Counted from the stretch's first letter, positions 26,433 through 61,514 are shown. The stretch is 64,000 bases of DNA from Alphaproteobacteria bacterium (GCA_017511715.1 JAFWJF010000001.1:2892-66891), one strand, 5' to 3'. Numbers and translations: made by a program. Notes: generated by a model not told the origin, from the letters alone.

Positions 26433-26463
26433 GATTTAAACCACCCGCAAGGGTGGTTTTTTA
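26433..26463. terminator. bidirectional terminator
   Basis: aaaccacccgcaagggtggtttttt. Confidence 0.6.
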
Positions 26464-41011: not shown

Positions 41012-44000
41012 ATGGCGGGAATCAAGCCTTTTTATAACATGTTAAAGCGTTTAATATTTGCAATATTCGTAGTGTTTACTGCAAATTCTGCATTTGCGGC
41101 GTGTGCTAGCAATCAAATTGATGTAAATGGTGATGGAACCAAATGTGAGGATGTGAAATTCACATTAGACCTTTCCAGAAGTTCAAACATAACGGTTTTC
41201 AATTTCTTTATGTCTGCCAAAGGAACATTTTATGTCGATTGCGGCAATGGCGGAACATTGACCAGCAATTCTGCCACTAATTACCCGGTATCGGGCAAAA
41301 CAGTTAACCGTACCTATGGAACGGGTAATGTAAGGTACTCTTGTACATGGGCCAATGGCAGCAAGACACAAACAATTAGGTTTGGTGGGGTTGCAGAAGG
41401 ATATAGCACCAATACAAGCACCGCCGCAATACGTTTTAATTATAATGCAACACAAGCGGCATATATAACATCAGTTTCTGGTAATTTGTCCGCTATGTTC
41501 CCGTATATTACAAACAATGCACAAAGTGGTGCACAACCAAGATTTTATATGACTTTTGATAAAGCGACAAACCTGAAAAGTATCCCCGATACATTGTTTG
41601 CAAATTACACAACACCGGCAACAAATATGTTTCATTCTACGTTTAACAATTCAGGATTGACATCAATACCTAGCAATTTGTTTTCCACCATATCTGGCGC
41701 AGCAGAAGGTCTGTTTTCTAGCACATTTAATGGATGTACCGGCTTAACATCAATACCTGGCAATTTGTTTTCCACCATATCTGGCGCAGCAAACAGCTTG
41801 TTCTATGGCACATTTCAGAATTGTACCGGCTTAACATCAATACCTAGCAATTTGTTTTCCGGGGTGTCTGGCGGGGCAAGTTCTATGTTTTTTTTCACGT
41901 TTAAAGGATGTACCGGCTTAACATCAATACCTGGCAATCTGTTTTCCACCATATCTGGCGCAGCAAACAGCTTGTTCTATGGCACATTTAGTGGATGTAC
42001 CGGCTTGACATCAATACCTAGCAATTTGTTTTCCACCATATCTGGCGCAGCAGACGGTCTGTTTTCTAACACATTTAATGGATGTACCGGCTTAACATCA
42101 ATACCTGGCAATCTGTTTTCCGGGGTGTCTGGCGGGGCAAGTTCTATGTTTTCTTACACGTTTAATGATTGCAGTTCGATATCTGCAATACCGGCAGGAC
42201 TATTTTCCGGTGTAAACCAGGCGGCAACAGGTTTGTTCATGAATGCATTTTCTGGTTCTGGGGTAAGTGGTTATATACCACCGACCACATTTTCCGGGTT
42301 GATTTCGGCGGGCAGCCCACAAAGTTCAGATATGTGGCTAGATACATTTTCATACACGAATTTAACAGCGACTTGTCCACAGGGAACAACGCAGTATATG
42401 ACAGGATACGAAGGTGGCACTAATGGTCCTACATGGAATGGGATGGTTTCTTGTACGCCAAATTCGACCACTGCAATTGCAGTAACTTTGGACAGTGCAG
42501 GCGCGACCACAAATGCCACACCTTCGACAATATATCTTCGATACGAGGATCGTTGGTACAGTAATTCTGCCCTTTCTGTTCAGATAAGTTCGCTTAACAC
42601 CATTCCATCAAAAACGGGATATATGTTCGGCGGTTTTTACACTCAACCAAATGGTTCCGGAATACAAATTATCAATTCAAATGGTTACATCTTGCAAACC
42701 ATGGAAGCAATCACGTTTACAACCACACCGACAACCGTGTATGCTTATTGGATAGAACCAAAGTTCACATTAACAACATCATCGACCAACAGTTTTCAAT
42801 TTAAACTATCTGCCGCTGGTACATTCTATGTAGACTGCGGAAACGGTGGAACGTTAAGTGGAACCGGGGCGTCCGGAAACACAATTACGCGTGCCGACAC
42901 AACCGAAGCGACATATACATGTTCATGGACCAACAGTGCAACACGAACAATCAGATTCAGCGGTGCCGCAACCGGGTATAATTCGTCTTATGGTGTTGCA
43001 GCAATAAAGTTTAATATGACAGATGCTGCCACTGATGCAAACGCAGCATTGTTAACGGGTATGTCTGGCACACTGGGGTCAATATTCGGAACAGTTGCCA
43101 CCGCCAGCACAGGCTCTGTTCAACCAGCATTTAATAAGACATTTTATGGTGCATCAAACCTTAATGCGTCAATACCGTCAAACTTTTTTGCGGGCGTTCA
43201 TGGTGCACCACGCGGGGGAATGTTTCAACAAACCTTTTCTGGATGCAGCAGTTTGACCGGCTCTATCCCAGAAACCCTATTCTGTGAAAACACGACCAAT
43301 CCAAGTGCATCAAACTGTATCTATGGAGCACCAATTGGGGCAATGTTTGAACATACATTCCTTGGTTGTAGTGGTTTGACGGGTTCTATCCCAGAAAAAC
43401 TGTTTGTGGGTATCCATGGCGCGCCTGCAAGTTATATGTTTTCTCAGACATTTAATGGATGTAGTGGTTTGACGGGTTCTATCCCAGAAAAACTATTCTG
43501 TCAAAACACAACCAGCCCATCTGCATCAAACTGTATCTATGGCGCACCGGCATCATCTATGTTTGCCTTGACATTTTATGGATGTAGTGGATTAACTGGC
43601 TCTATTCCAGAAAAACTGTTCGTTGGTATCCATGGTGCACCAGCAAATAATATGTTTCAACAAACATTCTATAATTGTAGTGGTTTAACTGGCTCTATTC
43701 CAGAAAAACTATTCTGTCAAAACACAACCAGTCCATCTACATCAAACTGTATCTATGGCGCGCCGGCAAGAGCTATGTTTTTTCACACTTTTTCTGGTTG
43801 TACAAATTTAACTGGTTTGATACCACAAAACCTTTTCAAAGGGATATACGGCGCGCCGGCAGAAAATATGTTTAATGGTACATTTAGGAATGACAACAAA
43901 TTGACAGGAATAACCGACGGCACAACTACCACAACCTATGTTCCATCAACATTCCTTAGCGCGATTAACAACACAAGCGCAACAACACCAGCAACAGGAA

Positions 44001-47000
44001 TGTTTACTGGTACGGGGCTTGCATCGTCTTGTCCGACGTGGGCAGCCGCCGCAACACCGGTATGGGCAACTGATGCTGGTAAGCCATGGTGCGAACCAGA
44101 TATAAAATTCACATTAAACACATTAGCGACTAACAGTTTTCAATTTAAACTATCTGCCGCTGGTACATTCTATGTAGACTGCGGAAATGGCGGAAGGTTA
44201 AGTGTGGTAAACGGTAACGGAACAGTTTCTGGGAATACGATAACAAAAACAGGTACTTCGTGGGGGACATTTGAATGTTCTTGGGATGATACCGAACCAC
44301 AAACACTTCGATTTGGTGGTGCAGCATCAGGGTACACTGCAAGCCAATCAGGCGGTGCAATAAGATTTAATGTTTCTGATACAAACCAAGATGATGATAC
44401 AAACGCACCAAAGATCACCGGAATATCCGGGTCATTGGGTGCAATATTTGGAACCATAGATGGCACGGTTTCCCCAACAGGCGCGGAATCACAACCAAGA
44501 TTCTATGGAACATTTTGGGCTGCATCCAACCTTGCTGGTTCAATACCAGACGAGCTTTTCTATGGCATACATGGCACACCAATATCATATATGTTTAACC
44601 GTACTTTCCGTGGTTGTAGCAGTTTAACTGGAAAAATACCTGAAACATTATTCTGTCAAAACACAAGCAACCCAAATGCATCAAACTGTATTTATGGCGC
44701 ACCGACACAACAGATGTTTTACATGACTTTTCACGGATGTAGCGGTTTGACAGGAAATTCTTCAACCGGATATGCCATTCCTGCAAAATTATTTGCAGGT
44801 ATTCGTGGTGATCCATCTTCAGCATCGAGTGTGTTTGGTTATACATTTTCCGGTTGTAGTGGTTTAAATGGGCAAATACCTGAAACATTATTCTGTCAAA
44901 ACCCGAACAGCCCCAGTGCATCAAACTGTATCTATGGTGCGCCGGCATCAAATATGTTTTCATTTACATTCCAAGGATGCACTGGTTTGACAGGTGACGG
45001 TATACATGCCGTTCCAGTAAAGTTGTTTGCAGGTCTCCATGGCGCGCCGGCACCAAAAATGTTTCAATCTACTTTTACTGGCGACACAGGATTGACAGGG
45101 GAAATTCCACCTGCGCTATTCTGTGGTGGTAATACGAATAATCTGAGTAATCCATCTGCCTCAAACTGTATCTATGGCACCCCGGCAACAGAAATGTTTA
45201 ATAGTACGTTTTATAATACTAGAATAACACATGTAGATAAAAATATGTTTGCGGGGATATCCGGTACTTCTGCGGAAAAGATGTTCTATCGTACATTTAA
45301 AAGTTGTAGTTCATTGTCGTACATAAATGATACCTTTAACACAAAAGCGACAACTTACATTCCGTCAGATTTCCTTGGTGGCATTACTGATGGATCCGTG
45401 ACAAATGACGCAACAGAAATGTTCACAGGTACGGGACTCACATCACCTTGTCCGACGGGGACAGCCACCGCAACACCGGCGTGGGCAACGGATGCTGCCA
45501 AACCATGGTGTGCACCCAACACATATAGCATTACATATGATATGAATGGTGGAACAAACTATTCCGGCGCACCTACAACATATGTTTATGGGACAAGTAC
45601 AACAATTAATGGCGCACCAACAAAATCAGGCTATATATTCAAAGGATGGACTGGTTCTAATGGTTCAACACCACAACCAACCGTGACGATTGGTGCAAGT
45701 GCCACCGGGGCAAAATCTTACACTGCGAACTGGGAAACGGCAAAATTCACATTAACCACATCAGGAATGAGCGATTTCAGCTTCAAGCTTTCGCCAAAGG
45801 GAACATTCTATGTCGATTGCGGAAATGGTGGAACGTTAAGTGGTCAAAGCGCGTCCGGCAGTACAGTTTCCGTCAACACAATCACACGTACAACCACAAC
45901 CGCAACAACATATACTTGTAGCTGGGCCAGTAGTGCTGGAAACAAAACAATATCTTTTGGCGGGTCTGCCACAAATACCACAACAACATATAACTCAGAT
46001 ACGAACGTACCAGCAATACATTTTTTGGAAAGTAGTAATGCAGACTCAATCAAAAGCGTATCTGGTAATTTGTCCGCGATGTTCCCGTACATCACATCAA
46101 ATGCACAAAGTGGTGCTCAACCAAGGTTTAACAGAACATTTTATGATGCAACACACTTGACCAGTGTTCCCGATACATTATTCGCAAATTATACCACACC
46201 CGCAACATATATGTTTAGTAATACATTTGCAAGTTCTGGGTTAACATCGATACCGGCGGGACTGTTTTCCCGCATAACCGGTGCAGCAACCGGTTTGTTC
46301 GAGGGTACATTTAGCGGTGCGCGCTTAACATCAGTGCCGGCGGGGCTATTTGCCGGGATATCTGGTGTGGCAGACAGTTTGTTTAATAGCACATTTACTG
46401 GCACACCAATAACATCTATACCAGAGAATTTGTTTGCCGGGGTATCGGGGTCTGCATCTGGCGTGTTTTCTTACGCTTTTTATCGTTGCGCTAGCCTGGC
46501 CACCATAACAAATGGGCAAACAAGTACGACCTATGTTCCGGGAACGTTCCTTAGTGATGTTACTGGCAATGACAATTACATTGGTGCCGACATGTTTGGC
46601 ATGACAGACTTGGCTGACACCTGTCCATATGGTATGGGCGATACAACACCGGCATGGGCAAGTGATGCTGGTAAACCATGGTGTTCTCCCAATACATATA
46701 CAATAACCTATTCTGCCGGTCAAGGTGGCGTTGGTGCAAACCAAACGGAAAACGTTGTGTTTGGCACCACATTTACCACAAAATCTGCAAATACGTTTAG
46801 TAAACCACACGCTACATTTACAGGCTGGGATACTCTTGAATACTCTTCAGCCTGGACACAACCAGATACAACATATACTTATGATTTGCCGTCAGATATT
46901 ACGATTGCAGCACAATGGACATGTGATTCTGGATACACATTAAATAACAGCACCGGAAATTGCGATGCCAACAGTATCACATGTGATCCAGGTTTTTATC

Positions 47001-50000
47001 TGAAAGGCAACACTCTAACATGTACGGCATGTCCTGCTGGTAAATATTGCGCGGGTGGCACATACACTCATAACGGTACGGACTTAGGTATAACTGGCGA
47101 TGTTACGGCGGGATATTTTGCTTCTGGTGGTGCAAAGGTCGCAGCCCCAACCAGCAACAGCGATTGCTTAAGCGGTAATACATGCGGTAAATGTACGACA
47201 GATTCTGCCACTGGTCGTCCTGCGTATTCAACAGCTGGAGCAGCAAGTTGTTCGGCATGCCCTGCAGTAACGGGCGATATGGCAAGTCGTGTTATCTCTT
47301 ATGCAGGTTGGTGGAGCAACGATATACATAATGCGGTTACAGGATGCGCTGCCTGGTTCAATGATACAGATAATGATGCAACATTCAGAGTGTATTGCTA
47401 TTATAACACTACAGATGGTGCCTATGGTGGTTCAAACAGCATTTGCCAAGTATGGCATCCGACTGCTTGTGCAGCAGGAAAATATGATACGATAGAATCA
47501 ACAACGGAATGGCTTGCTTCTGCTAATTACACACGTGGGAAAGGTGTAGATTTCATGAATGGCAAGGTTTGTACAAACACAGATGCAGGTTATTACAGTG
47601 CCGAAGGTTCTTTGACACAAACCGCATGTGCAGCAGGCTCTTACAGCAGTGCGGGCGCAAGTACATGTACGGCATGTCCGGCGGGTAAGACAACCGCTGG
47701 CACTGGAACGGCTTTCAACACTAATGCAAACACTACATGTTCAACAAGTTGTTCGTCTATCGCAAACCTGAAAACTTGGAACAGTCAGACTTGGAACAGC
47801 GCAAATAATACAGTGACTAATTTGTGCACGGTTGCAACTTGTAATGCTGGGGCATATAAGTCTGGTAACACTTGTCCGGTTTGTGGTGCGAATTCTTGGT
47901 CAGATGATGGTGCAAGCAGCTGTACAGCATGTAACACGACCAATGGATACACGAACAGTGGAACAACAGCGGCGGCTCATGCTGGTCAGTACAGTTGTAA
48001 GACCACGTGTGCGGCAGGTAAACAAGTTGCAAGTCCTGGCGAGGCATGTTCTACCCCCGGTGGCAGTTGGTATTCTGTTCAACACACTGTAGGGGAAGGA
48101 TCGACATCCGCTGTTCAGCTGATAAGTAATCCGAATGTATTTGATTGTTTAATTGGTGGCTATGCAACACCTGACACAACTATACAAACAGACCACGATG
48201 CAAGCACAGATTGTAGGATAACATGTTCTGCAGGAAGCAGAGTCACAACGCCTAATGGTATGTGTACAGCGATAACGAGTGGCAATGTATATATGCTTGA
48301 ACATACTGTTGCCCAGGGATCTACATCACCAAAAGCAACATCATGCCCAACAAGTTATACAATCAGCGGTTCTACACAAGCAGACCACGATGCGAAGAAC
48401 GATTGTAAGATAACATGTGGTGCTGGATATGTTGTTGACACAGAAGATGGTAATTGTATTGTGCCAGAAGAAGGTTTCCAGACAGGGATACATACAGTAA
48501 GCGCAGGAAGTGTGACACGAATAGATAAAGATCCAGGCATGAACGTACCCCGTGCAGGAATATGGTATGACTGTTTGACTAACTATAGTGCGACAGGCAA
48601 AAGCGCAATCAACCACGATCAAAGAAGTGATTGTAAAATAACATGTAATGCGGGAACACAGATTGCAACTAACAATGCAACTAGGTGCACGACACCGACA
48701 GGAAGTTGGTACACAGAACAACATACAGTAAGTGCAGGCAGCACGAGTAGTCCAACCAGTTGTGCGACAGGCTATGCAACAGCAAACACATCAACCGCAA
48801 CAGACCACGATGCGCAAGCCGATTGTAAGATTGGGTGCAGTGCTGGATATTATATACCAACAGCAGGTGGTGGATGCAAGGCATGTCCTGCTGGTAAATA
48901 CTGCACAGCAATAAGTGGTATTGCAGAAACTGCAACATCTGCCGCGACAGGAAACATAACGGCTGGGTATTTTGCTTCTGGTGGTGCAAAGGTCGCAACC
49001 CCAACAAGTAGCAGCGATTGCTTAAGCGGTAATACATGCGGCACATGCCAGGGACAGAATGGACCAAATGGTCGTCCACTTTATACTGATGCAACCGGCG
49101 GCGCAGCACAATGTTCTGAGTGTCCAGCAGTAGAAGCATCTTTAACAAGTCGTGTTGTCTCATATGGTTATTGGCCAGATACGCGTGACAGAGGGATACA
49201 AAATTGTTCTGCGAAATTCACTGATACAGATCCTGATGCTACGTTTACTACGGAATGTTATTATAGAGGCTCTAATTATCATGAATCCTTTAACTGTCAA
49301 ACCGCCGCACCAACCGCTTGTGCTGCGGGTAAGTATGAAACTATCAGAACAACAGACAAATGGGGCACATATTACGCCATTGGTACTGGAGTAGATCATA
49401 TGAACGGTAAGGTTTGTACGGATACAGATGCAGGTTATTACAGTGCCGAAGGTTCTTTGACACAAACCGCATGTGCAACGGGTTCATACAGCAGTGCTGG
49501 CGCAAGTACATGTACGGCATGTCCGGCGGGTAAGACAACCGCTGGCACCGGAACAGCTTTCAACACTAATGCAAACACTACATGTTCAACAAGTTGTTCG
49601 TCTATCACAAACCTAAAAACTTGGAACAGTCAGACATGGAACAGTTCAAATAATACAGTGACTAATTTGTGCACGGTTGCGACTTGTAATGCTGGGGCAT
49701 ATAAGTCTGGTAACACTTGTCCGGTTTGTGGGGCGAATTCTTGGTCAGATGCTGGTGCAAGCAGCTGTACAGCATGTCAAACAGATTATACCAACAGCGG
49801 AACAACAGCGACAAACCATGCAGGAAACGCATCTTGTAAGATAACTGTATCTGGCGGTCATTATATTGGCACACCCGGTCAAAACAGCACAAACTGGGGA
49901 ACATGTGATGCAGGAACCTTTAAGGCGCAACATACCGTGGCATATGGCAGCACAAGTAGTTGTTCGAACTGCGAAGGCAGAACGAAGTACAGTGCGGCAG

Positions 50001-51613
50001 GTGCATCATCTTGTTCAACTGTAAGCAGTGGATATTACTCAACAGGATGTACATCTAATAATAACTGTACAGGACAATCACAGTGTACGGGTGCAACATA
50101 CTGTGCAAGTGGTGTACAAAACAACTGTCCGACAGCAGAAAGCACATGGACACAGGGTACTGGTAATGGATGGACAGCTGTAACACAGTGCTTTGAGACC
50201 AAGAACGCAACAGATGTAAGCAGTTATTGCAGTGCTGGACAATTAAAGAAGAACGCTACGAACACCACGACCTGGGGCGACAGCACAATAAGCACAGCGT
50301 TGAAAGCAAAAGCGGGTTCTATTGTAAGCGGACAAACATGTACACAATGTACAGGTGCCACATTCTCGGCTGGTGATACTGCGACAAGTTGTAGTGCATG
50401 CCCGACTGGATATGATGCGAACACAGATGCTGGCAAGAGCACGAACACACAATGCCAGATAAGTGTGACGGGCGGTCATTATATTGGTACGAAGGGTCAG
50501 ACAAGTTCTAACTGGGATACATGTGCGGCAGGTACATACAAGGCAGCACACACTGTGAACTATAACAGCACAAGTAGTTGTTCGAACTGCGAAGGCAGAA
50601 CGAAGTACAGTGCGGCGGGTGCATCATCTTGTTCAACTGTCACCAGCGGATACTATTCAACCGGTTGTGACACATCGACAAACAATAACTGTACAGGACA
50701 ATCAAAGTGTACTGGAAAAACATATTGCACAAATGGTGTACAGGAAGATTGTCCAGCCGCAGCTGATCACAAACGTACAACGTTCCCAGCAGCATATTAT
50801 TCGCCAACAATTACAAGCACATCCATAATGAGTGCCAGTAGACGCAAGGCAATCACAGAATGTAAGGCTTCTTCGACAATGACTGGGGCACGCGGAACAT
50901 TGATTGATCAAGCAACATATAACCCAACCACAGAAGAATACGACACCACAACATGGTATGGATATTATAATGTTAAACCGGGGTATTATTTGACCACCAC
51001 GGGCAGTTGCGGAACATACGCATACTATCAAAATGCGGAAATTTGTCCAGATGGTGCTTATTGTCCGGGCAAGGCGGGGGTTAAGTGTGATTCTAGCAAC
51101 GAAGCAACCGTTCATACGCCAACATTCGGTCTGGAAGAATGTTCAGCATTGAACAGCGAATATACAAAATCTGATAGTGGGCGCAATGCAGCAACCGATT
51201 GCTATCTGAACACGACAGCAACAAAATATGTTGCAACTGCTGGTGAAAACCAAGTTGATTGTATTGCAGACGGATATTGTCCGGGTAATGTAAAGATATA
51301 TTATAACAGCATTGGTGGACGCACTGCGTGCCCTGCCACAGCACCATATAGTGGCGCGGGTATGTCAAGGCCCGAACAATGCGGACGCAAGTTGCATATT
51401 GGCGATAACGTAATGTATTTGCGTTCTGAAAAAGCAACGACACCTTCGCTGAACGTCAATTTTGGTGGCATGACATATTATGGAAATATGGCAGAAACCC
51501 AAGCAAACATTACAAGTTCTTCAACCAAAGAATTGAAGATTAAATACAAAAATAATAACAAATTGTACTACTTGTGTGATGACACAACCTGTCCAGAGGC
51601 AGACAACGATTAA
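41012..51613 (+). CDS. giant secreted mosaic surface protein (3533 aa): four N-modules with BspA-like LRR blocks, Listeria-Bacteroides repeats, ephrin-receptor-like Cys-rich repeats, conserved C-terminal domain
   Basis: Signal peptide MAGIKPFYNMLKRLIFAIFVVFTANSAFA. Four copies of KFTL..F.FKLSAAGTFYVDCGNGGTLSG...TYTCSW...TIRFGG. LRR repeats LFxxISGAAxxLFxxTFxGCTGLTSIP. Repeats of the form YxITYxxNGG...GYxFKGW. More than 20 C..G.Y..(A)G...C..CPAGKxxxG motifs. Single uninterrupted ORF. Confidence 0.9.
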   Translation: MAGIKPFYNMLKRLIFAIFVVFTANSAFAACASNQIDVNGDGTKCEDVKFTLDLSRSSNITVFNFFMSAKGTFYVDCGNGGTLTSNSATNYPVSGKTVNRTYGTGNVRYSCTWANGSKTQTIRFGGVAEGYSTNTSTAAIRFNYNATQAAYITSVSGNLSAMFPYITNNAQSGAQPRFYMTFDKATNLKSIPDTLFANYTTPATNMFHSTFNNSGLTSIPSNLFSTISGAAEGLFSSTFNGCTGLTSIPGNLFSTISGAANSLFYGTFQNCTGLTSIPSNLFSGVSGGASSMFFFTFKGCTGLTSIPGNLFSTISGAANSLFYGTFSGCTGLTSIPSNLFSTISGAADGLFSNTFNGCTGLTSIPGNLFSGVSGGASSMFSYTFNDCSSISAIPAGLFSGVNQAATGLFMNAFSGSGVSGYIPPTTFSGLISAGSPQSSDMWLDTFSYTNLTATCPQGTTQYMTGYEGGTNGPTWNGMVSCTPNSTTAIAVTLDSAGATTNATPSTIYLRYEDRWYSNSALSVQISSLNTIPSKTGYMFGGFYTQPNGSGIQIINSNGYILQTMEAITFTTTPTTVYAYWIEPKFTLTTSSTNSFQFKLSAAGTFYVDCGNGGTLSGTGASGNTITRADTTEATYTCSWTNSATRTIRFSGAATGYNSSYGVAAIKFNMTDAATDANAALLTGMSGTLGSIFGTVATASTGSVQPAFNKTFYGASNLNASIPSNFFAGVHGAPRGGMFQQTFSGCSSLTGSIPETLFCENTTNPSASNCIYGAPIGAMFEHTFLGCSGLTGSIPEKLFVGIHGAPASYMFSQTFNGCSGLTGSIPEKLFCQNTTSPSASNCIYGAPASSMFALTFYGCSGLTGSIPEKLFVGIHGAPANNMFQQTFYNCSGLTGSIPEKLFCQNTTSPSTSNCIYGAPARAMFFHTFSGCTNLTGLIPQNLFKGIYGAPAENMFNGTFRNDNKLTGITDGTTTTTYVPSTFLSAINNTSATTPATGMFTGTGLASSCPTWAAAATPVWATDAGKPWCEPDIKFTLNTLATNSFQFKLSAAGTFYVDCGNGGRLSVVNGNGTVSGNTITKTGTSWGTFECSWDDTEPQTLRFGGAASGYTASQSGGAIRFNVSDTNQDDDTNAPKITGISGSLGAIFGTIDGTVSPTGAESQPRFYGTFWAASNLAGSIPDELFYGIHGTPISYMFNRTFRGCSSLTGKIPETLFCQNTSNPNASNCIYGAPTQQMFYMTFHGCSGLTGNSSTGYAIPAKLFAGIRGDPSSASSVFGYTFSGCSGLNGQIPETLFCQNPNSPSASNCIYGAPASNMFSFTFQGCTGLTGDGIHAVPVKLFAGLHGAPAPKMFQSTFTGDTGLTGEIPPALFCGGNTNNLSNPSASNCIYGTPATEMFNSTFYNTRITHVDKNMFAGISGTSAEKMFYRTFKSCSSLSYINDTFNTKATTYIPSDFLGGITDGSVTNDATEMFTGTGLTSPCPTGTATATPAWATDAAKPWCAPNTYSITYDMNGGTNYSGAPTTYVYGTSTTINGAPTKSGYIFKGWTGSNGSTPQPTVTIGASATGAKSYTANWETAKFTLTTSGMSDFSFKLSPKGTFYVDCGNGGTLSGQSASGSTVSVNTITRTTTTATTYTCSWASSAGNKTISFGGSATNTTTTYNSDTNVPAIHFLESSNADSIKSVSGNLSAMFPYITSNAQSGAQPRFNRTFYDATHLTSVPDTLFANYTTPATYMFSNTFASSGLTSIPAGLFSRITGAATGLFEGTFSGARLTSVPAGLFAGISGVADSLFNSTFTGTPITSIPENLFAGVSGSASGVFSYAFYRCASLATITNGQTSTTYVPGTFLSDVTGNDNYIGADMFGMTDLADTCPYGMGDTTPAWASDAGKPWCSPNTYTITYSAGQGGVGANQTENVVFGTTFTTKSANTFSKPHATFTGWDTLEYSSAWTQPDTTYTYDLPSDITIAAQWTCDSGYTLNNSTGNCDANSITCDPGFYLKGNTLTCTACPAGKYCAGGTYTHNGTDLGITGDVTAGYFASGGAKVAAPTSNSDCLSGNTCGKCTTDSATGRPAYSTAGAASCSACPAVTGDMASRVISYAGWWSNDIHNAVTGCAAWFNDTDNDATFRVYCYYNTTDGAYGGSNSICQVWHPTACAAGKYDTIESTTEWLASANYTRGKGVDFMNGKVCTNTDAGYYSAEGSLTQTACAAGSYSSAGASTCTACPAGKTTAGTGTAFNTNANTTCSTSCSSIANLKTWNSQTWNSANNTVTNLCTVATCNAGAYKSGNTCPVCGANSWSDDGASSCTACNTTNGYTNSGTTAAAHAGQYSCKTTCAAGKQVASPGEACSTPGGSWYSVQHTVGEGSTSAVQLISNPNVFDCLIGGYATPDTTIQTDHDASTDCRITCSAGSRVTTPNGMCTAITSGNVYMLEHTVAQGSTSPKATSCPTSYTISGSTQADHDAKNDCKITCGAGYVVDTEDGNCIVPEEGFQTGIHTVSAGSVTRIDKDPGMNVPRAGIWYDCLTNYSATGKSAINHDQRSDCKITCNAGTQIATNNATRCTTPTGSWYTEQHTVSAGSTSSPTSCATGYATANTSTATDHDAQADCKIGCSAGYYIPTAGGGCKACPAGKYCTAISGIAETATSAATGNITAGYFASGGAKVATPTSSSDCLSGNTCGTCQGQNGPNGRPLYTDATGGAAQCSECPAVEASLTSRVVSYGYWPDTRDRGIQNCSAKFTDTDPDATFTTECYYRGSNYHESFNCQTAAPTACAAGKYETIRTTDKWGTYYAIGTGVDHMNGKVCTDTDAGYYSAEGSLTQTACATGSYSSAGASTCTACPAGKTTAGTGTAFNTNANTTCSTSCSSITNLKTWNSQTWNSSNNTVTNLCTVATCNAGAYKSGNTCPVCGANSWSDAGASSCTACQTDYTNSGTTATNHAGNASCKITVSGGHYIGTPGQNSTNWGTCDAGTFKAQHTVAYGSTSSCSNCEGRTKYSAAGASSCSTVSSGYYSTGCTSNNNCTGQSQCTGATYCASGVQNNCPTAESTWTQGTGNGWTAVTQCFETKNATDVSSYCSAGQLKKNATNTTTWGDSTISTALKAKAGSIVSGQTCTQCTGATFSAGDTATSCSACPTGYDANTDAGKSTNTQCQISVTGGHYIGTKGQTSSNWDTCAAGTYKAAHTVNYNSTSSCSNCEGRTKYSAAGASSCSTVTSGYYSTGCDTSTNNNCTGQSKCTGKTYCTNGVQEDCPAAADHKRTTFPAAYYSPTITSTSIMSASRRKAITECKASSTMTGARGTLIDQATYNPTTEEYDTTTWYGYYNVKPGYYLTTTGSCGTYAYYQNAEICPDGAYCPGKAGVKCDSSNEATVHTPTFGLEECSALNSEYTKSDSGRNAATDCYLNTTATKYVATAGENQVDCIADGYCPGNVKIYYNSIGGRTACPATAPYSGAGMSRPEQCGRKLHIGDNVMYLRSEKATTPSLNVNFGGMTYYGNMAETQANITSSSTKELKIKYKNNNKLYYLCDDTTCPEADND

Positions 51614-55267: not shown

Positions 55268-56443
55268 TCAAATAGATTTTTGTTTTAATATACGAATGTA
55301 TTTTTGTATTTCTGTTGTTGCTCCGTGGATTAAGAAAGCTTTTGGACATGCGCATCGTTTAGCATCGGTATCACATTTCATCAAAGAGCATAAATTACAA
55401 TTCATTGTTTGCAAAGCAACACATGCGGGCATCATAGATACTATAGGTTCTTGATATTTGGTGTATAATTTAGAATATTCTTCTGGTTTGTTCTTTCTTA
55501 AATTCATCAAAAATAAATATACCGCACACACATTACGCGCAACACGAGCACATTGTCTACGTTTTCTTCTTGCTTCGTTGCTCGTCTTGCAGTGATCTTC
55601 TTTGTTTGCTTCGTAATATTTTTTGCGTCTTGTTTTTATTTTTGCACTGTTTTCTTGTCTATATTGTTTTTGTTGTGTCAATATGTCATTTTTGTTTTCT
55701 TTATAGTATTTTTTTCTTTTTATACTTCTTTCTTCTGCGTGTTCAGCATTATATTCTCTTTGATGTTGTAAAATTTTATCTTTGTTTTCTTCATAATATG
55801 CTTTGTGTTGAACCTGCCGTTTTGCCTTGTGTTTTTGATACATAGCAGCCAAATACACTTTATAAATATCTTTGCGTTCTTGATAGTCCGCTTTTTTTCT
55901 GGCTAATAATTCTGTTTTGTGTTCCTGATAGTATCTGGTCACTTTTTCGATAATTTTTTCCCTGTTCTTTTTATAATATTTTTTGTCTTTATTTCTTTTT
56001 TTTATTTTTATTTGTTCTGATTTTTCCAACAATATTTCTTTTATTTTATTTGCAACAGGTTTTGTTATCAAACGTGCGTTTTTGTTTGCTTTTCTGGTTG
56101 CCTCATTTAAATGCAACAAACGCTTCAATGTTATTGAAAAAGGTATTTTTAACCAAATTAAACTCACCATATCATTTTTTAGATATGCGGTCCCCGCAAT
56201 CAAATCTATGAAATCAGATTCTGTGAAAATGTCTTCTATGCTTTCTGAAGTTAAAAAAGTTTTTATATCTTTTTCATGTTCGGAATCAAATAAATACCAT
56301 TCTGTAACAACTTCTGCAAAAGAAGAAACGTGTTGCGCCACAGTATTTTTTGTTGCATATGTTATCGCATTTAAACCATCGGCAACACAAACTTTACCTG
56401 ACAATTCTTGAAACAAAGATTCTATTTCAACACTATTTCGCAT
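55268..56443 (-). CDS. K/E/Y-rich tandem-repeat protein with Cys-rich C-terminus, unknown function
   Basis: Roughly 25-aa repeats of the form (R/K)KKYYKENK(D/N)xIxxxQxxYxxE, six or more copies. C-terminus has 9 Cys. Confidence 0.5.
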   Translation of the reverse strand: MRNSVEIESLFQELSGKVCVADGLNAITYATKNTVAQHVSSFAEVVTEWYLFDSEHEKDIKTFLTSESIEDIFTESDFIDLIAGTAYLKNDMVSLIWLKIPFSITLKRLLHLNEATRKANKNARLITKPVANKIKEILLEKSEQIKIKKRNKDKKYYKKNREKIIEKVTRYYQEHKTELLARKKADYQERKDIYKVYLAAMYQKHKAKRQVQHKAYYEENKDKILQHQREYNAEHAEERSIKRKKYYKENKNDILTQQKQYRQENSAKIKTRRKKYYEANKEDHCKTSNEARRKRRQCARVARNVCAVYLFLMNLRKNKPEEYSKLYTKYQEPIVSMMPACVALQTMNCNLCSLMKCDTDAKRCACPKAFLIHGATTEIQKYIRILKQKSI

Positions 56444-56569: not shown

Positions 56570-56911
56570 TTATTTTTTCCAAAATGCAAAACCACGTCTT
56601 TCCTTATGTTCTTCACGAGATTTGCGTTCTTCGCGTGCGCGCCTGCGTTCTGCGCGGCGTTCTTGAAATCTTTTTGCAGATTCTTCATCACGTTGTATCA
56701 ATTTCAGAGTTGTCACAGATAATTTTCCATTACGAACTTCTTCATCAAATTCAACGATGTCATTTTCATTCAAGAAACGAATATCTGCTGCCTTTAATGC
56801 AGAAGAATGAACAAATACATCATCTGTATTTCCATCTTCATTTGGAGTGTCCGGGGCAATAAAACCAAAACATTTTTTGCCGTTATACCATTTTACCTTT
56901 CCTTGACGCAT
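56570..56911 (-). CDS. cspA: cold-shock domain protein with charged R/E-rich C-terminal extension
   Basis: GKVKWYNGKKCFGFIAP...DVFVHSSAL (RNP1/RNP2 motifs). Tail RAERRRAREERKSREEHKERRG. Confidence 0.85.
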   Translation of the reverse strand: MRQGKVKWYNGKKCFGFIAPDTPNEDGNTDDVFVHSSALKAADIRFLNENDIVEFDEEVRNGKLSVTTLKLIQRDEESAKRFQERRAERRRAREERKSREEHKERRGFAFWKK

Positions 56912-57010
56912 AATTGTATCCTTTTTATGCTTGGGTTAATGGTTGTTGCGAACCTTTTCAACAACCTGATTATATTTTACATTAAATGCCAAACAAAACG
57001 CAAGAAAAAA

Positions 57011-57035
57011 CGCAGGGGATAAAATCTTATCCCCC
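57011..57035 (-). terminator. terminator downstream of the 468-aa ORF
   Basis: gcaggggataaaatcttatcccc hairpin. The minus strand reads ...tatcccctgcgttttttc. Confidence 0.5.
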
Positions 57036-57041
57036 GACACA

Positions 57042-58448
57042 CTATTTCTTATAATAGCGTTGCAATTCTTTCATTATAAAGTTGAAAAACTTGCCCGACA
57101 TAGTGTCTGTATTTACAGTCCAATTAGAATCTGAATACGGCATCGCAGATACCAAAATAAACTTTGCCATCCATCTAAATATTCGTATTTCTTGGTCGCG
57201 AGTCAATTTTGCAGGCGCGTTTTCAACATAAAACACTTCATTTTCAACCGCATTATCAACCTTTTCCATTATAATATCTGTGATTTTCTGTGGATAATAT
57301 ACGGTTGATATTCTGGGGAAGCCTTCAAATAATTTATCTTCGTTGCCGGCACTATATAAAATATTCCACCCTATTCTGTCAAACAAATCTTCGACACATT
57401 CACATATTATTGCATTGTATTTTTTTATGCCTTCTTGGTGTAAAATTTCTGTTTGAGTTTCAATTTGAGCCGCCGATTTGATTTTTCTGGTTTCGGCACG
57501 TCTTGATTTTTCATACGCCGCGTGGGTTTGATGTTCAAATTCGAAAAATGTACGAACCTGGCATATAATTTCCATTGGAATAACTTTGTCTGCCGTTCCA
57601 ATATTCAATATCAATTTCGCATCACGATAGCCACGCGGGTTTGCGATATCAAAAAACTTGTCCCGCACAGCAATTATCTTGTCCGGCCACATGTTACAGA
57701 TACGTTCAATAAATGTTCGCGCTTGGGGAACCAAATCAAACAAGCATTTTATGCGCCAAACATCTTCAAGTCTGGCGTATGGTGTACGAATCTGGTCAAG
57801 GGCGCGCACCAATTCAACCGATACTTGTTCATGCCCAGATCCTATTATCTTCAATACCTTTGCAGACGCATCTGTAATGAAAGATTTAGAAAAAGTTTCA
57901 TGAATTTTATCCGATATCGCCCGCGCAGATGCTAATTTTTTTGTCCGCCCTATAACCATATATGCGGTTTGCGCAACTTCATTTACATAATCATTATAAT
58001 ATTTCCCAGTAATTTTATCCAATGTTCGCGCAACACTTTTTTGGGCCCCCACGATAACCGTCACAATTGACGACACCGCCAAATCTATTTTATGTCCACG
58101 TGTTGCCACAAAAAATTGATTACGCATTGGATCTTCGTCCAATCTGTGATTTACCAAATATGGTTCCAGAGGATTAATATCCGATATTGTTATTTTTTTG
58201 TTTACTGCTGAATCTGTTTCATAATCATATGCGTGAACAGCTGCCTTTGGCGCACCGAAACATTTACCGATATACAAGAAAACTTCACGAAAATTATTCA
58301 TTGAATTGGAATACAAAGTTATCAAATATTCGCGTGTTGCGTTATCTATGCGGTCTTCTGAAAAGGCTTTTTCGATAAGTTCCAGATTTTTGTTGTCATG
58401 CGCTTTTGTCAATGCAAATATAACGCCATCTTCTGTGTCGGCAACCAT
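57042..58448 (-). CDS. hypothetical 468-aa protein with a possible RelA/SpoT-like nucleotidyltransferase core (tentative)
   Basis: Segment PRGYRDAKLILNIG...PMEIICQVRTFFEFEHQTHAAYEK loosely matches the RSD GYxSxH ... E(I/V)QIRT...H...YK motifs. Confidence 0.4.
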   Translation of the reverse strand: MVADTEDGVIFALTKAHDNKNLELIEKAFSEDRIDNATREYLITLYSNSMNNFREVFLYIGKCFGAPKAAVHAYDYETDSAVNKKITISDINPLEPYLVNHRLDEDPMRNQFFVATRGHKIDLAVSSIVTVIVGAQKSVARTLDKITGKYYNDYVNEVAQTAYMVIGRTKKLASARAISDKIHETFSKSFITDASAKVLKIIGSGHEQVSVELVRALDQIRTPYARLEDVWRIKCLFDLVPQARTFIERICNMWPDKIIAVRDKFFDIANPRGYRDAKLILNIGTADKVIPMEIICQVRTFFEFEHQTHAAYEKSRRAETRKIKSAAQIETQTEILHQEGIKKYNAIICECVEDLFDRIGWNILYSAGNEDKLFEGFPRISTVYYPQKITDIIMEKVDNAVENEVFYVENAPAKLTRDQEIRIFRWMAKFILVSAMPYSDSNWTVNTDTMSGKFFNFIMKELQRYYKK

Positions 58449-58462
58449 AACAAATCCTTTTG

Positions 58463-59929
58463 TTATTTCATTATCGGAAAGAGTATAACATCACGCGCGG
58501 TCGGCTGATTAAACACAATCATCGCCAAACGGTCTATACCCATACCCACACCAGAAATCGGTGGAAAACCATGTTCCATTGCACGGACAAAGTCATTATC
58601 TGGGTTAAAGGCTTCTTCTTCACCACCTGCAATATTTTTTGCCTGCTCTTCAAATGCAGCCAGTTGCTGTATTGGGTTTACCAATTCAGAATAGCCCTTG
58701 CATAATTCGCCACCGGCGACCAACAATTGATACATATCAAGTCTGCGGTCATCTTCGTCATTGTGGCGTGCCAATGGCACCATATATGTCGGATAATTAT
58801 AAAGGAATGTAGGTTGAACTATTTGATTCCTGATTTTACGTTTATAGACATAATCAACCAATGTTGGAATTGATTTCAAATCATCTAATTCGCCCGCAGG
58901 GAACATGCCCTGTTCCACCAATTGATTGCGCAGTTTGTCTACATCATCAAAATCAAGTATATTGCATCCGAACAATTCGTTCATTTTTGCAGTATAGTCC
59001 ATCATTTCATATTTACTGAAATCTAACATTGTGCCCTGATATTCAATCTGCAAAGTACCGCGCGCCTTTTGCACTAATTCTTGAACCATTTGCCACGTAA
59101 AATCGATATTTCTTTTATAGTCCCAATATGCAGCATACCATTCTATCATTGTAAATTCTTGCAAATGCATGGCATCCATGCCTTCATTACGAAAATCTTT
59201 TGCCACTTCGTAAACCCGGTCAAAGCCCGCACCAATCGCTTGTTTCAAGAATAATTCAGGTGAAATACGCAACTGGAAATCTGCATCCAAGGCGTTATGG
59301 TGTGTTGTAAATGGTTTTGCCGCCGCCCCAGAAGCAATATTTTGCATAATCGGTGTTTCAATTTCCAAAAAACCATTTCTGTTCATAAACTCACGCAAAT
59401 TATGAGTCATTTGAAAACGCCCCAGCAACGCATTACGTGCCTCTGGATTAGAAATTATGTCTAAATATCTTTGGCGATAACGTGTTTCTGTATCTGTCAA
59501 ACCATGATACTTTTCTGGCAGTGGGCGCAGAGCTTTTGCCAGAATTTCATATTTCGATACGCGAACGGTCAATTCTCCCGCAGTTGTGTGGTAAAGCGTA
59601 CCGGTAATTCCTATAAAATCGCCCAGATCAACATTGGCTTTCATAAACTTATAATTTTCTTCGCCTAATTCTTCGCGGGACATAGAAAACTGTATTTCGC
59701 CTTCGATATCATAAATGCGTCCAAACATCAATTTGCCAAGCCACCGCAAAGCCGTCACACGCCCACACAACACAACAGGCGTATCGTCCGCCAATTCACG
59801 CGCTTCGCTAATCTTATGTGTTCTATCAAATTTATCTTTCCAAACGACACCATCACGTTGTTTAATGTTTTCAACCTTTTGCAAGCGTGCTTCGGTTTCA
59901 TTTGTAGATATATTTGTGTTTTCTGCCAT
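58463..59929 (-). CDS. lysS: lysyl-tRNA synthetase, class II
   Basis: N-terminal OB anticodon-binding domain, class II motifs (FRNEG, GGELCKGYSELVNP, GVGMGIDRL). Confidence 0.9.
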   Translation of the reverse strand: MAENTNISTNETEARLQKVENIKQRDGVVWKDKFDRTHKISEARELADDTPVVLCGRVTALRWLGKLMFGRIYDIEGEIQFSMSREELGEENYKFMKANVDLGDFIGITGTLYHTTAGELTVRVSKYEILAKALRPLPEKYHGLTDTETRYRQRYLDIISNPEARNALLGRFQMTHNLREFMNRNGFLEIETPIMQNIASGAAAKPFTTHHNALDADFQLRISPELFLKQAIGAGFDRVYEVAKDFRNEGMDAMHLQEFTMIEWYAAYWDYKRNIDFTWQMVQELVQKARGTLQIEYQGTMLDFSKYEMMDYTAKMNELFGCNILDFDDVDKLRNQLVEQGMFPAGELDDLKSIPTLVDYVYKRKIRNQIVQPTFLYNYPTYMVPLARHNDEDDRRLDMYQLLVAGGELCKGYSELVNPIQQLAAFEEQAKNIAGGEEEAFNPDNDFVRAMEHGFPPISGVGMGIDRLAMIVFNQPTARDVILFPIMK

Positions 59930-60118: not shown

Positions 60119-61228
60119 TTAGACCGAATATTTCTCAAAAACCTTGTTTAACTGATTATGAACCTTTATCAGTGTTGCACATTTTGGCATGTTTTTTACA
60201 GATGATGCGCCAATATATGTACAACAAGATGCTATTCCACCAGAAATATCTTGCAAAATTTTGTCCAAAGAACCAGTGTATGGTATTAATAATTCACGTC
60301 CTTCGGATGTTTTATAATTGCACATACCTCCTGCGAATTTATTGTTTGCATATTCCGAAGACATCCCATAATACTGCTTGAAACGTTTTGTTTGTACTAC
60401 AGATTGACCGTCAATCATTTCATTCGTTTGATATTGTTTTTCGATGATTTCGCCTTCGGCTTCATCAGAACCAGCAAACATGCCGCCCGCCATCACAAAA
60501 TCTGAATTCAGACAAAAAGCCTTGCATATATCACCGATATCAACAATTCCACCATCTGCGCAAATGTGCCCGTTAACAGAATGTGCGATATCCGCGCATT
60601 CCAAAATCAATGATACCATCGGCGTTCCGCACCCCGTCTGTTTGCGCGTTAAGCACGCGGAACCACTGCCAATGCCACATTTGATAATATCTGCATAATC
60701 TAGCAATTTTAGACATACATCGCCGCTGGCAATATTACCCACCATTATTACAGCATCTGGAAATTCATGTCGAACATCTATCAACATATCCCATGCCTTT
60801 GGGATATAAAAGTTTGGTGCGTCAATACAGATATTACGCGTCCCAATCCAGTTATATTTTGATTCTAAATCTTTCAATTTTTGTATTTGTTCTGCTGCAT
60901 TTTTCAATCCGATTGTAATAAACAGATTATCAATAGAAATATTGCCTGCGCGACAATCATCTAAAAATTGTCCTATCTCATCAACTGTGTAATGTTTATG
61001 AATTGTTGCAAACATGCCACGCGCCAATAATTTTTTTGCAATTGCAAAATTGCCCACAGTTGCCATGTTTGCATTAAAAACCCCAAGTCCTGTCCTGGTT
61101 TGACCGTGTTTGAATTTGAACAATCTTTGCAGATTGACTTCACGTCTTGAATTAAGATTTATTCCCATTTTCGGCTTAATTAAAATATCAGAATAATCAA
61201 GATATTCTTCTGATAATACTTGTGTCAT
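60119..61228 (-). CDS. GMP reductase / IMP dehydrogenase family protein (GuaC-like, no CBS insert)
   Basis: GIGSGSACLTR and GCGTP catalytic-loop motifs. About 370 aa. Confidence 0.7.
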   Translation of the reverse strand: MTQVLSEEYLDYSDILIKPKMGINLNSRREVNLQRLFKFKHGQTRTGLGVFNANMATVGNFAIAKKLLARGMFATIHKHYTVDEIGQFLDDCRAGNISIDNLFITIGLKNAAEQIQKLKDLESKYNWIGTRNICIDAPNFYIPKAWDMLIDVRHEFPDAVIMVGNIASGDVCLKLLDYADIIKCGIGSGSACLTRKQTGCGTPMVSLILECADIAHSVNGHICADGGIVDIGDICKAFCLNSDFVMAGGMFAGSDEAEGEIIEKQYQTNEMIDGQSVVQTKRFKQYYGMSSEYANNKFAGGMCNYKTSEGRELLIPYTGSLDKILQDISGGIASCCTYIGASSVKNMPKCATLIKVHNQLNKVFEKYSV

Positions 61229-61437: not shown

Positions 61438-61514
61438 TGGTGCGAGCAAAGGGGCTCGAACCCTCGACCTCAACCTTGGCAAGGTTGCGCTCTAGCCAAC
61501 TGAGCTACGCTCGC
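61438..61514 (-). tRNA. tRNA-Gly (anticodon GCC)
   Basis: Reverse complement gcgagcgtagctcagttggctagagcgcaaccttGCCaaggttgaggtcgagggttcgagcccctttgctcgcacca. Confidence 0.85.

Follow-up and report, generated by a model that had tools for sequence, protein, structure and literature searches.

Gene X and the lysS operon

The window analyzed here is a stretch of 64,000 nucleotides from an Alphaproteobacteria bacterium (GCA_017511715.1, JAFWJF010000001.1:2892-66891). Towards its right-hand end lies an ATG-initiated reading frame of 468 codons, henceforth gene X, whose position relative to its neighbors is as originally described: lysS, encoding lysyl-tRNA synthetase (LysRS), is found upstream, and a cold-shock gene (csp) is found downstream, all on the same strand. 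Details of the locus, together with the predicted parts of the X protein, are given in Table 1.

Table 1. Features of the lysS–X–csp locus and predicted elements of the X protein, in order of transcription
Feature	Position	Strand	Details
lysS, class II lysyl-tRNA synthetase, operon-proximal gene	58463..59929	(-)	NCBIfam NF001756 (lysine--tRNA ligase), 528 bits
Ribosome-binding site AAGGA of gene X	58455..58459	(-)	6 nt before ATG, within the 14-nt lysS–X spacer; read from sequence
Gene X, 468-aa divergent RSD-fold protein	57042..58448	(-)	stop codon TAG at 57042-57044
N-terminal three-helix region (aa 6-63)	58260..58433	(-)	model helices 6-30, 36-45, 49-63; common to both clades
First half of RSD core (aa 67-151)	57996..58250	(-)	four strands, then triphosphate-binding helix
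Clade-specific conserved loop (aa 101-128)	58065..58148	(-)	HRLDEDPMRNQFF...GHKID; 28 residues
Syn1-like motif	57996..58049	(-)	G134-A-Q-K137-S-V-A-R141-T-L-D-K145-I-T-G-K149-Y-Y vs RelQ G-R46-V-K48-P-V-A-S52-I-L-E-K56; first Arg replaced by Ala
~70-aa helical insertion (aa 152-222), Syn1–Syn2 interval	57783..57995	(-)	helices 149-169, 172-188, 194-202, 207-218
Second half of RSD core (aa 223-318), Syn2 to Syn5	57495..57782	(-)	aligned to RelQ by hhalign
Syn2-like motif	57747..57764	(-)	D229-V-W-R232-I-K234 vs RelQ D72-I-A-G75-L-R77; Asp kept, Gly replaced by invariant Arg, Arg by Lys
Acceptor 'G-loop'	57615..57641	(-)	N270-P-R272-G-Y274-R275-D276-A-K278 vs RelQ S-G-Y116-R-S-Y-H120; GY aligns to GY
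Syn4/Syn5-like motif	57501..57572	(-)	E293-I-I-C-Q297-V-R299-T...H309..Y312-E313..R316 vs RelQ E139-I-Q-I-R143-T...H..Y-K
C-terminal helical domain (aa 326-467)	57048..57473	(-)	no recognisable relative; conserved end ...ELQRYYKK
Intrinsic-terminator-like hairpin and T-run	57003..57036	(-)	CGGGGGATAAGATTTTATCCCCTG; 5 nt past the gene X stop codon
csp, cold-shock domain protein with R/E-rich tail	56570..56911	(-)	Pfam CSD 4.3e-15; conserved neighbor downstream of X

The start codon of X follows the lysS stop codon by only 14 nt, with AAGGA in between, and X therefore reads as the distal gene of the lysS operon, predicted to share a transcript with lysS and to end at a terminator of its own. The terminator that had been claimed for X is indeed present, as a GC-rich hairpin of 10 bp with a T-run, but X has no transcription start of its own. 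An Rfam scan of the operon region returned a tRNA-Gly alone; neither a leader nor a riboswitch was found.

Gene order was compared across 80 species-level loci, with denominators given by the loci that had enough flanking sequence. A same-strand lysS lies directly upstream of X in 69 of 74 loci (∼93%), with a median gap from lysS stop to X start of 14 nt (range 1–80), and 53 of the 80 loci have a similar hairpin with a T-run after X. A same-strand csp lies directly downstream in 67 of 76, at a median distance of 127 nt and beyond the terminator: its transcript is probably separate from that of lysS–X. Csp was considered as a functional partner or antitoxin of X, yet with a terminator and ∼127 nt between the two genes the adjacency was taken as synteny only. 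The outer neighbors are far less conserved (a GuaC-like gene in 14/69, XerC in 23/59 and a 391-aa neighbor in 1/66), so lysS–X(–csp) survives rearrangements as one unit.

A narrow protein family in gut Alphaproteobacteria

The original prediction had called X an orphan, a label that does not hold. A word-indexed search of 5.8 billion proteins returned 604 homologues at E≤0.01, and when the GTDB species were scanned, each by one representative genome, 277 of these genomes contained relatives. The best 120 of the 604 homologues are all full-length, at least 59% identical, unnamed, and derived from 'Alphaproteobacteria bacterium' or Ca. Enterousia MAGs. The family is nonetheless narrow as well as real, since 1.84 billion cluster representatives, searched exhaustively with a profile, yielded just 53 matches.

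Members fall into two groups that are ∼19% identical: the Enterousia clade (∼465 aa), to which X belongs, and a distant clade (450–690 aa), likewise from uncultured Alphaproteobacteria. All of the 80 carrier genomes listed, of the 277, are gut, rumen or faecal alphaproteobacterial MAGs, one being a closed chromosome of 958,618 bp; the family is restricted to uncultured gut Alphaproteobacteria. Ca. Enterousia belongs to the order Rs-D84 and has genomes of less than 1 Mbp that lack the TCA cycle and respiratory chain and encode an incomplete glycolysis; its lifestyle is presumed to be obligate and partner-dependent (PMC12306168). No description of X was found in the searchable literature.

X is under strong purifying selection. 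The reading frame is intact in 81 of 81 orthologues, among which 107 of the 468 positions are invariant, residues of the catalytic motifs included. Median pairwise dN/dS is 0.07 (205 pairs; dS is ∼1.6 and hence near saturation), and median identity across species is 61% for X vs 84% for LysRS. The family was found neither on plasmids (tblastn of X) nor on phages (tblastn of P0158) nor on IMG/VR viral contigs (pattern scans with both clades), and on these grounds a phage or plasmid origin of X was ruled out.

The distant clade occurs in varied chromosomal contexts in which translation-related neighbors recur. A YbaK-type tRNA_edit gene adjoins the X-family gene divergently at two loci, where the family proteins share 59% identity; elsewhere a Peptidase_U32 gene starts 2 nt downstream, fmt, era and rnc lie near one family member, and an ABC-F gene lies near another. 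This neighborhood is no more than suggestive, as small genomes are rich in translation genes.

The RelA/SpoT-type core of X

X carries a RelA/SpoT-like synthetase core (RSD) at about residues 230–340, as had been proposed from a segment that corresponds to residues 271–314. Searches by sequence did not reveal it. X has no significant match in Pfam, NCBIfam, PADLOC or PHROGs; matches to REC1 and Pus10_C were dismissed as weak and far below threshold. PF04607 (gathering score 27 bits) does not match X even at E≤1. It does match 3 of 22 divergent relatives below threshold (best E 0.031), and it is the sole Pfam family matched by more than one member of the X family. Sequence searches of the PDB with X, A1 and A2 produced chance-level matches (haemoglobin, folliculin) plus one sub-threshold segment of SaSAS, which aligns on the Syn4/Syn5-like motif of X. 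The original prediction was to be abandoned if profile searches gave no hit; that rule would here wrongly reject an RSD core.

The core was recovered by structure. Two independent structure predictions and the associated fold searches support the RSD fold. The AlphaFold2 model of X, built with 31 family members, has a pLDDT of 78.6 and a pTM of 0.75, and the first 48 matches returned by a Foldseek search of the PDB with this model are all RelA/SpoT-type synthetase domains (probability 0.80–1.00), among them CapRel, RelP, RelQ, SaSAS, FaRel2 and RelSeq. X does not group with the classical Pol-beta-type nucleotidyltransferases (CD-NTase, MenT/AbiEii, KNTase): it has neither their hG[GS]...D-x-[DE] signature nor its closest fold match among them.

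Profile–profile alignment gave the same answer. The reference set comprised eight RSDs: B. subtilis RelQ (matched residue for residue to PDB 5ded), two RelQ-type PDB chains, Phrann gp29, Salmonella RelA and three other phage-encoded RSDs. Against these the alignment of 22 family sequences scored E 3.4e-5 in hhalign (probability 72%) and placed X 220–314 on RelQ 61–160; enlarging the family alignment to 69 sequences brought no gain (E 1.5e-4, probability 52%) and returned the same region of X. From this 22-sequence alignment come the equivalences between X and RelQ from D229 through Y312/E313. Those in the Syn1 helix (GAQKSVARTLDK vs GRVKPVASILEK) come from a separate local alignment in which the predicted register was chosen (E 0.2, not significant alone and consistent with that register). 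Residue roles in X follow from alignment, not from geometry.

So aligned, the catalytic Asp and Glu that hold the metal in Syn2 and Syn4 correspond to D229 (RelQ D72) and E293 (E139), and the Tyr that stacks on the acceptor base within G-Y-x-S-x-H corresponds to Y274, with G273-Y274 at the position of G115-Y116 in the acceptor loop. In the Syn1 helix K137 takes the place of K48, R141 that of S52 and K145 that of K56; Y312/E313 occupy the positions of the RelQ Y/K pair. Seven positions invariant in the RSD set are replaced in X: R46 (by A135), G75 (by R232, a new invariant Arg), R77 (by K234), the His of the G-loop motif, H120 (by K278), Q141 (by I295), R143 (by Q297) and T144 (by Val). The Syn4 signature E-x-Q-x-R-T accordingly reads E293-I-I295-C-Q297-V in X; the distant clade keeps E-x-Q-x-K.

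Conservation within the family falls on the same residues. Only six are invariant across 22 divergent members (K137, D229, R232, Y274, E293 and H309), five of which sit at RSD motif positions, while R141, K145, D276, K278, Y312, E313 and R316 are near-invariant. All six are kept in 81/81 orthologues as well, which also retain, without exception, R141, K145, K149, Y150 and Y151 of the Syn1-like motif and N270, R275 and K278 of the acceptor loop. Of the positions with a replaced arginine, 135 is Ala in 78 of 81 orthologues, and 234 is Thr or Ser in the distant clade.

The structure of FaRel2 with APCPP shows what these positions do in a known enzyme (PMC11782079): the donor adenine stacks against R64 and R95, touches G93 and Q147 and offers its NH2 to E145 in a hydrogen bond; K66, S70, K74 and R77 bind the triphosphate, D90 binds Mg2+, and Y128 accommodates the acceptor base. 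With FaRel2 R64/R95 equated to RelQ R46/R77 by motif spacing, the RSD pair of donor-adenine arginines is absent from X, where A135 and K234 are found. On the alignment, then, the X family retains the predicted metal site, phosphate helix and acceptor Tyr; both adenine-stacking arginines appear to be replaced, and the same holds for Syn4 Q-x-R-T in the Enterousia clade. An adenosine donor is likely, because E293 matches the Glu that hydrogen-bonds the adenine NH2. With both stacking arginines gone, ATP may be bound weakly or in an altered way. Since both are replaced and a new invariant arginine, R232, has appeared, donor geometry, regulation or even the identity of the substrate may differ from those of known RSH enzymes. 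We infer an active enzyme with a remodelled donor pocket.

Outside the catalytic core X differs in architecture from known systems. Many distant relatives match best in the N-terminal region, the consensus of which is NL..I..A...G.ID..T..YL..LY.D.M..[FY]REV. Within the Enterousia clade no stretch is better conserved than the loop at residues 101–128 (84% mean identity), yet it is modelled at a pLDDT of 33–44 and the distant clade lacks it; it may act as a lid or bind a partner. RelP/SAS2 and RelQ/SAS1 (PDB 6ewz, 6fgk, 5dec/5ded) are 12–18% identical to X and measure ∼210 aa vs 468: X alone has the extra N-terminal helices, the 28-aa loop, the ∼70-aa insertion between Syn1 and Syn2 and a C-terminal domain of ∼145 aa, and it is operonic with lysS. 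Where X has its helical insertion, RelQ has only ∼15 residues (K56–D72), the canonical SAS segment being much shorter. Superposition on CapRel(SJ46), a fused toxin–antitoxin tRNA pyrophosphokinase (PDB 7ztb), is limited to the RSD core; the C-terminal domain is helical in X and a pseudo-zinc-finger in CapRel(SJ46), and X is a fixed chromosomal core gene whereas CapRel(SJ46) is prophage-borne and defence-associated. The hydrolase, TGS, AH, RIS and ACT domains of long RSH proteins (Rel/RelA/SpoT) were not detected in X by Pfam or NCBIfam, in agreement with the earlier statement that X lacks Rel/SpoT regulatory domains. In contrast to Tas1/Apk1 and the exported alarmone synthetases (PDB 6ox6, 8vx3), X has no secretion signal, immunity gene or toxin context.

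Taken together, it is highly probable that X is an RSD-fold protein with an intact predicted catalytic centre. X resembles a small alarmone synthetase, yet fails the sequence tests for one (PF04607, the arginine sandwich and E-x-Q-x-R-T): it is a very divergent, hitherto overlooked relative of the ppGpp-synthesizing enzymes.

Activity and function of X

Our preferred reading, to which we assign a probability of roughly 0.45, is that X is a catalytically competent, divergent RSD enzyme: an ATP-Mg pyrophosphokinase with a housekeeping or regulatory role, co-expressed with LysRS and predicted to make an alarmone-type product. X would bind ATP-Mg and transfer the beta,gamma-pyrophosphate of ATP to the 3′-OH of a purine nucleoside moiety. 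The acceptor would most likely be a free nucleotide, giving a (p)ppGpp- or (p)ppApp-like alarmone; basic residues flank Y274 (R272, R275 and K278), as they do in alarmone synthetases. X would be a constitutive enzyme, its dose tied to expression of LysRS, and no toxin. The adjacency to lysS, the terminator, a dN/dS of ∼0.07, the presence in 277 species and the lack of phage, viral or plasmid copies argue for such a housekeeping enzyme over a toxin–antitoxin toxin or an effector. Of the functions originally offered, the small-alarmone-synthetase-like one fits best. The toxSAS, fused toxin–antitoxin and host-effector options are disfavoured by the fixed lysS operon (∼93% of loci), the lack of an antitoxin-like neighbor, an empty PADLOC search, the lack of mobile copies and the low dN/dS.

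A more radical version is conceivable, and we put it forward tentatively. X would represent a new housekeeping RSD branch with a non-canonical reaction. Either its remodelled donor pocket (with both adenine-stacking arginines lost, the new R232, the conserved K-Y-Y-x-x-Y element and the DPMRNQFF loop) would allow it to synthesize an undescribed nucleotide messenger, or it would pyrophosphorylate tRNA (tRNA-Lys, for example) or another RNA 3′-end reversibly, as a non-toxic regulatory mark. In both cases it would couple the status of LysRS and translation to growth in these partner-dependent bacteria with genomes of less than 1 Mbp.

The main rival, less likely than the preferred reading, keeps its fold and chemistry and changes the acceptor. 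Here the pyrophosphate would be placed on an RNA at its 3′ adenosine, with the CCA end of tRNA the most plausible target, as in FaRel2, CapRel and PhRel2; X would act as a regulated brake or marker on tRNA that is co-expressed with LysRS. CapRel is among the top structural matches, the acceptor Tyr is conserved, X shares an operon with an aminoacyl-tRNA synthetase in 69/74 species loci, and the additional N- and C-terminal domains together with loop 101–128 could form an RNA-binding surface. The translation-related neighbors (lysS and, in the distant clade, YbaK-type tRNA_edit, Peptidase_U32, fmt and ABC-F) fit an RNA acceptor about as well as a nucleotide, but in a genome of 900 genes so many serve translation that such neighbors may occur by chance. 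Moreover the protein is not basic (pI 7.1), R272, R275 and K278 beside the Tyr are reminiscent of the patch with which nucleotide-acceptor enzymes bind phosphate, and the known tRNA-pyrophosphorylating RSDs are toxins restrained by antitoxins (PMC11782079), a kind of partner that X lacks.

The remaining explanations, in which X is a pseudoenzyme, a toxin or an effector, are disfavoured because the locus is a fixed part of the core genome, there is no partner gene, evolution is slow and the catalytic residues are invariant. That X has the RSD fold but no pyrophosphokinase activity, serving instead as a nucleotide sensor or as a scaffold that binds, for example, LysRS, the ribosome or Csp, is unlikely. 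In its favor are the seven substitutions at positions invariant in the RSD set, which include both adenine-stacking arginines and Syn4 Q-x-R-T, and conservation along the whole length, covering the non-catalytic domains and a probably disordered loop, which suggests many interaction surfaces. However, what stays invariant across clades that are otherwise ∼19% identical is the chemistry itself: both metal ligands (Asp and Glu), the basic residues (Lys and Arg) of the phosphate helix and the Tyr for the acceptor. Such a pattern is typical of an active enzyme.

It is more improbable still that X is a toxSAS or a CapRel-like fused toxin–antitoxin or defence protein, its C-terminal domain inhibiting the RSD until a trigger such as phage arrives. 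The conserved domain of ∼145 aa that follows the RSD core gives X a superficially CapRel-like order, and just past the ATP-binding helix there is a YxxY-type element, Y151-N-D-Y154; a motif of this kind (YXXY) blocks the donor site of CapRel and ATfaRel2 (PMC11782079). Against this, no small gene adjoins X, which has the 14-nt spacer on one side and the terminator on the other, and no antitoxin-like neighbor was seen; the fixed locus in 277 species, the dN/dS and the lack of PADLOC matches and of phage, viral-contig or plasmid copies point the same way. Least credible of all is a protein secreted or injected, like Tas1 or the exported alarmone synthetases, into the partner or host cell of presumed obligate symbionts: the lineage is inferred to be partner-dependent (PMC12306168), Tas1 and SaSAS are among the structural matches and among the products of the window are large surface-type proteins, namely that of a 3533-aa ORF and one BspA-type LRR protein, but no signal peptide or hydrophobic N-terminus is seen in the X sequence, no secretion-system or immunity gene was found beside X, and effectors do not typically evolve so slowly or share a transcript with lysS.

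Under the preferred reading, that of an alarmone-type pyrophosphokinase, X bears on several wider questions. RelA/SpoT homologues are counted by means of sequence profiles, and since the X family escapes these completely, the known repertoire of alarmone-type pyrophosphokinases is incomplete. X is a slowly evolving core gene in genomes of ∼900 genes that have been stripped of respiration, the TCA cycle and part of glycolysis; as a non-mobile gene physically coupled to lysyl-tRNA synthetase it is a candidate for a minimal control link between translation and growth, in an uncultured lineage that presumably depends on a partner and occurs widely in the guts of animals and humans. The replacement of the adenine-stacking arginines beside a preserved metal site and acceptor Tyr amounts to a natural experiment on donor-nucleotide binding by RSDs, and, were the product or acceptor to prove new, X would define a new signalling nucleotide or RNA mark.

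Canonical Rel/SpoT was also looked for alongside the X family. A tblastn search with RelA and RelQ was empty in 1.06 Mb of Enterousia loci, all of them from the same region, and no mention of the stringent response was found in the Enterousia literature; a probe with a related gut alphaproteobacterial Rel returned matches that were all at least 83% identical and came from larger genomes. For one distant-clade relative the two occur together: contig L099 carries a canonical long RSH of 715 aa, with HD, RelA_SpoT, TGS, AH, RIS and ACT domains, at a distance of 4.5 kb from an X-family member. In at least some relatives the X family therefore coexists with Rel/SpoT, and it is neither simply a replacement for it nor simply 'the' stringent factor.

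A conserved loop and divergent C-termini

Within the Enterousia clade, comprising X (the divergent RelA/SpoT synthetase-domain (RSD) fold protein encoded after lysS) and its close orthologues, the most conserved stretch of X is a loop at aa 101-128 (HRLDEDPMRNQFF...GHKID; 84% identity). Confidence in the predicted structure is very low across this segment (pLDDT 33-44), and the distant clade of relatives is entirely devoid of a counterpart. The loop may act as a lid that is disordered, or it may bind a partner.

The two clades also differ at the C-terminus: the Enterousia clade ends in …RYYKK, whereas nearly all distant-clade members carry a basic tail with a final Arg (…NRGR, …EKDR, …QKSR, …KKAR, …SKNR, …TKDR, …QKGR, …KKER; tails compared in P0149, P0150, P0155, P0158, P0159, P0163, P0166, P0170 and P0171). 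In another distant member, P0172 (424 aa, from a 2-kb Logan contig), the RSD-like core of the family (…GYRDAN…CEIQCQARPFYKFNHDHHVVYE…) is fused on its C-terminal side to a globin domain (Pfam Globin, E 5.7e-22). P0172 may come from a eukaryote; the fusion itself would suggest a gas- or redox-regulated activity.

Gene neighborhoods of X and its relatives

The cold-shock gene csp lies downstream of X in 67 of 76 species loci, and a terminator separates the two despite this kept gene order. Its product has a normal CSD and, after it, a tail of ~45 residues rich in Arg and Glu. Beyond csp lies a gene for a protein that contains repeats resembling 'KKYYKENK' and has a C-terminus rich in Cys. This protein returned no family match, and its place next to csp is not conserved in other species (one of 66 loci). 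On the other side, the GMP-reductase/IMPDH-family gene adjoins lysS in only 14/69 other species loci.

At locus L099, 4.5 kb separate a distant-clade member of the family from a canonical bifunctional Rel/SpoT, which is in the same block as acpS, lepB, rnc, era and fmt. At L012 an ORF matching CdiA_C is situated ~270 nt upstream of P0126, an intermediate-clade member.

Coordinates of features in the window and at loci of relatives
Feature	Location	Strand	Remarks
391-aa protein	window 55268-56443	-	K-, E-, R-, Y-rich
csp, cold-shock protein	window 56570-56911	-	
Conserved loop of X	window 58065-58148		aa 101-128
GMP-reductase/IMPDH-family gene	window 60119-61228		precedes lysS
tRNA-Gly(GCC)	window 61438-61514	-	upstream of GMP-reductase/IMPDH-family gene
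Canonical bifunctional Rel/SpoT	L099 12404-13905		715 aa; contig JAZUAM010000018.1
ORF with a CdiA_C (tRNase toxin) domain match	L012 7379-7732		117-aa ORF
Giant ORF	window 41012-51613	+	3533 aa
BspA-type leucine-rich-repeat protein	window 32289-33875	-	
Carboxyltransferase ORF	window 26461-28200	-	579 aa

Other genes of the window

Together, the giant ORF and the BspA-type leucine-rich-repeat protein suggest that large proteins for the cell surface or for adhesion are encoded here, in keeping with a cell-attached lifestyle. Elsewhere, a single ORF holds both the beta part of the acetyl-CoA carboxylase carboxyltransferase, with a zinc ribbon and Carboxyl_trans, and the alpha part, with ACCA; it is apparently a fused accD-accA gene.
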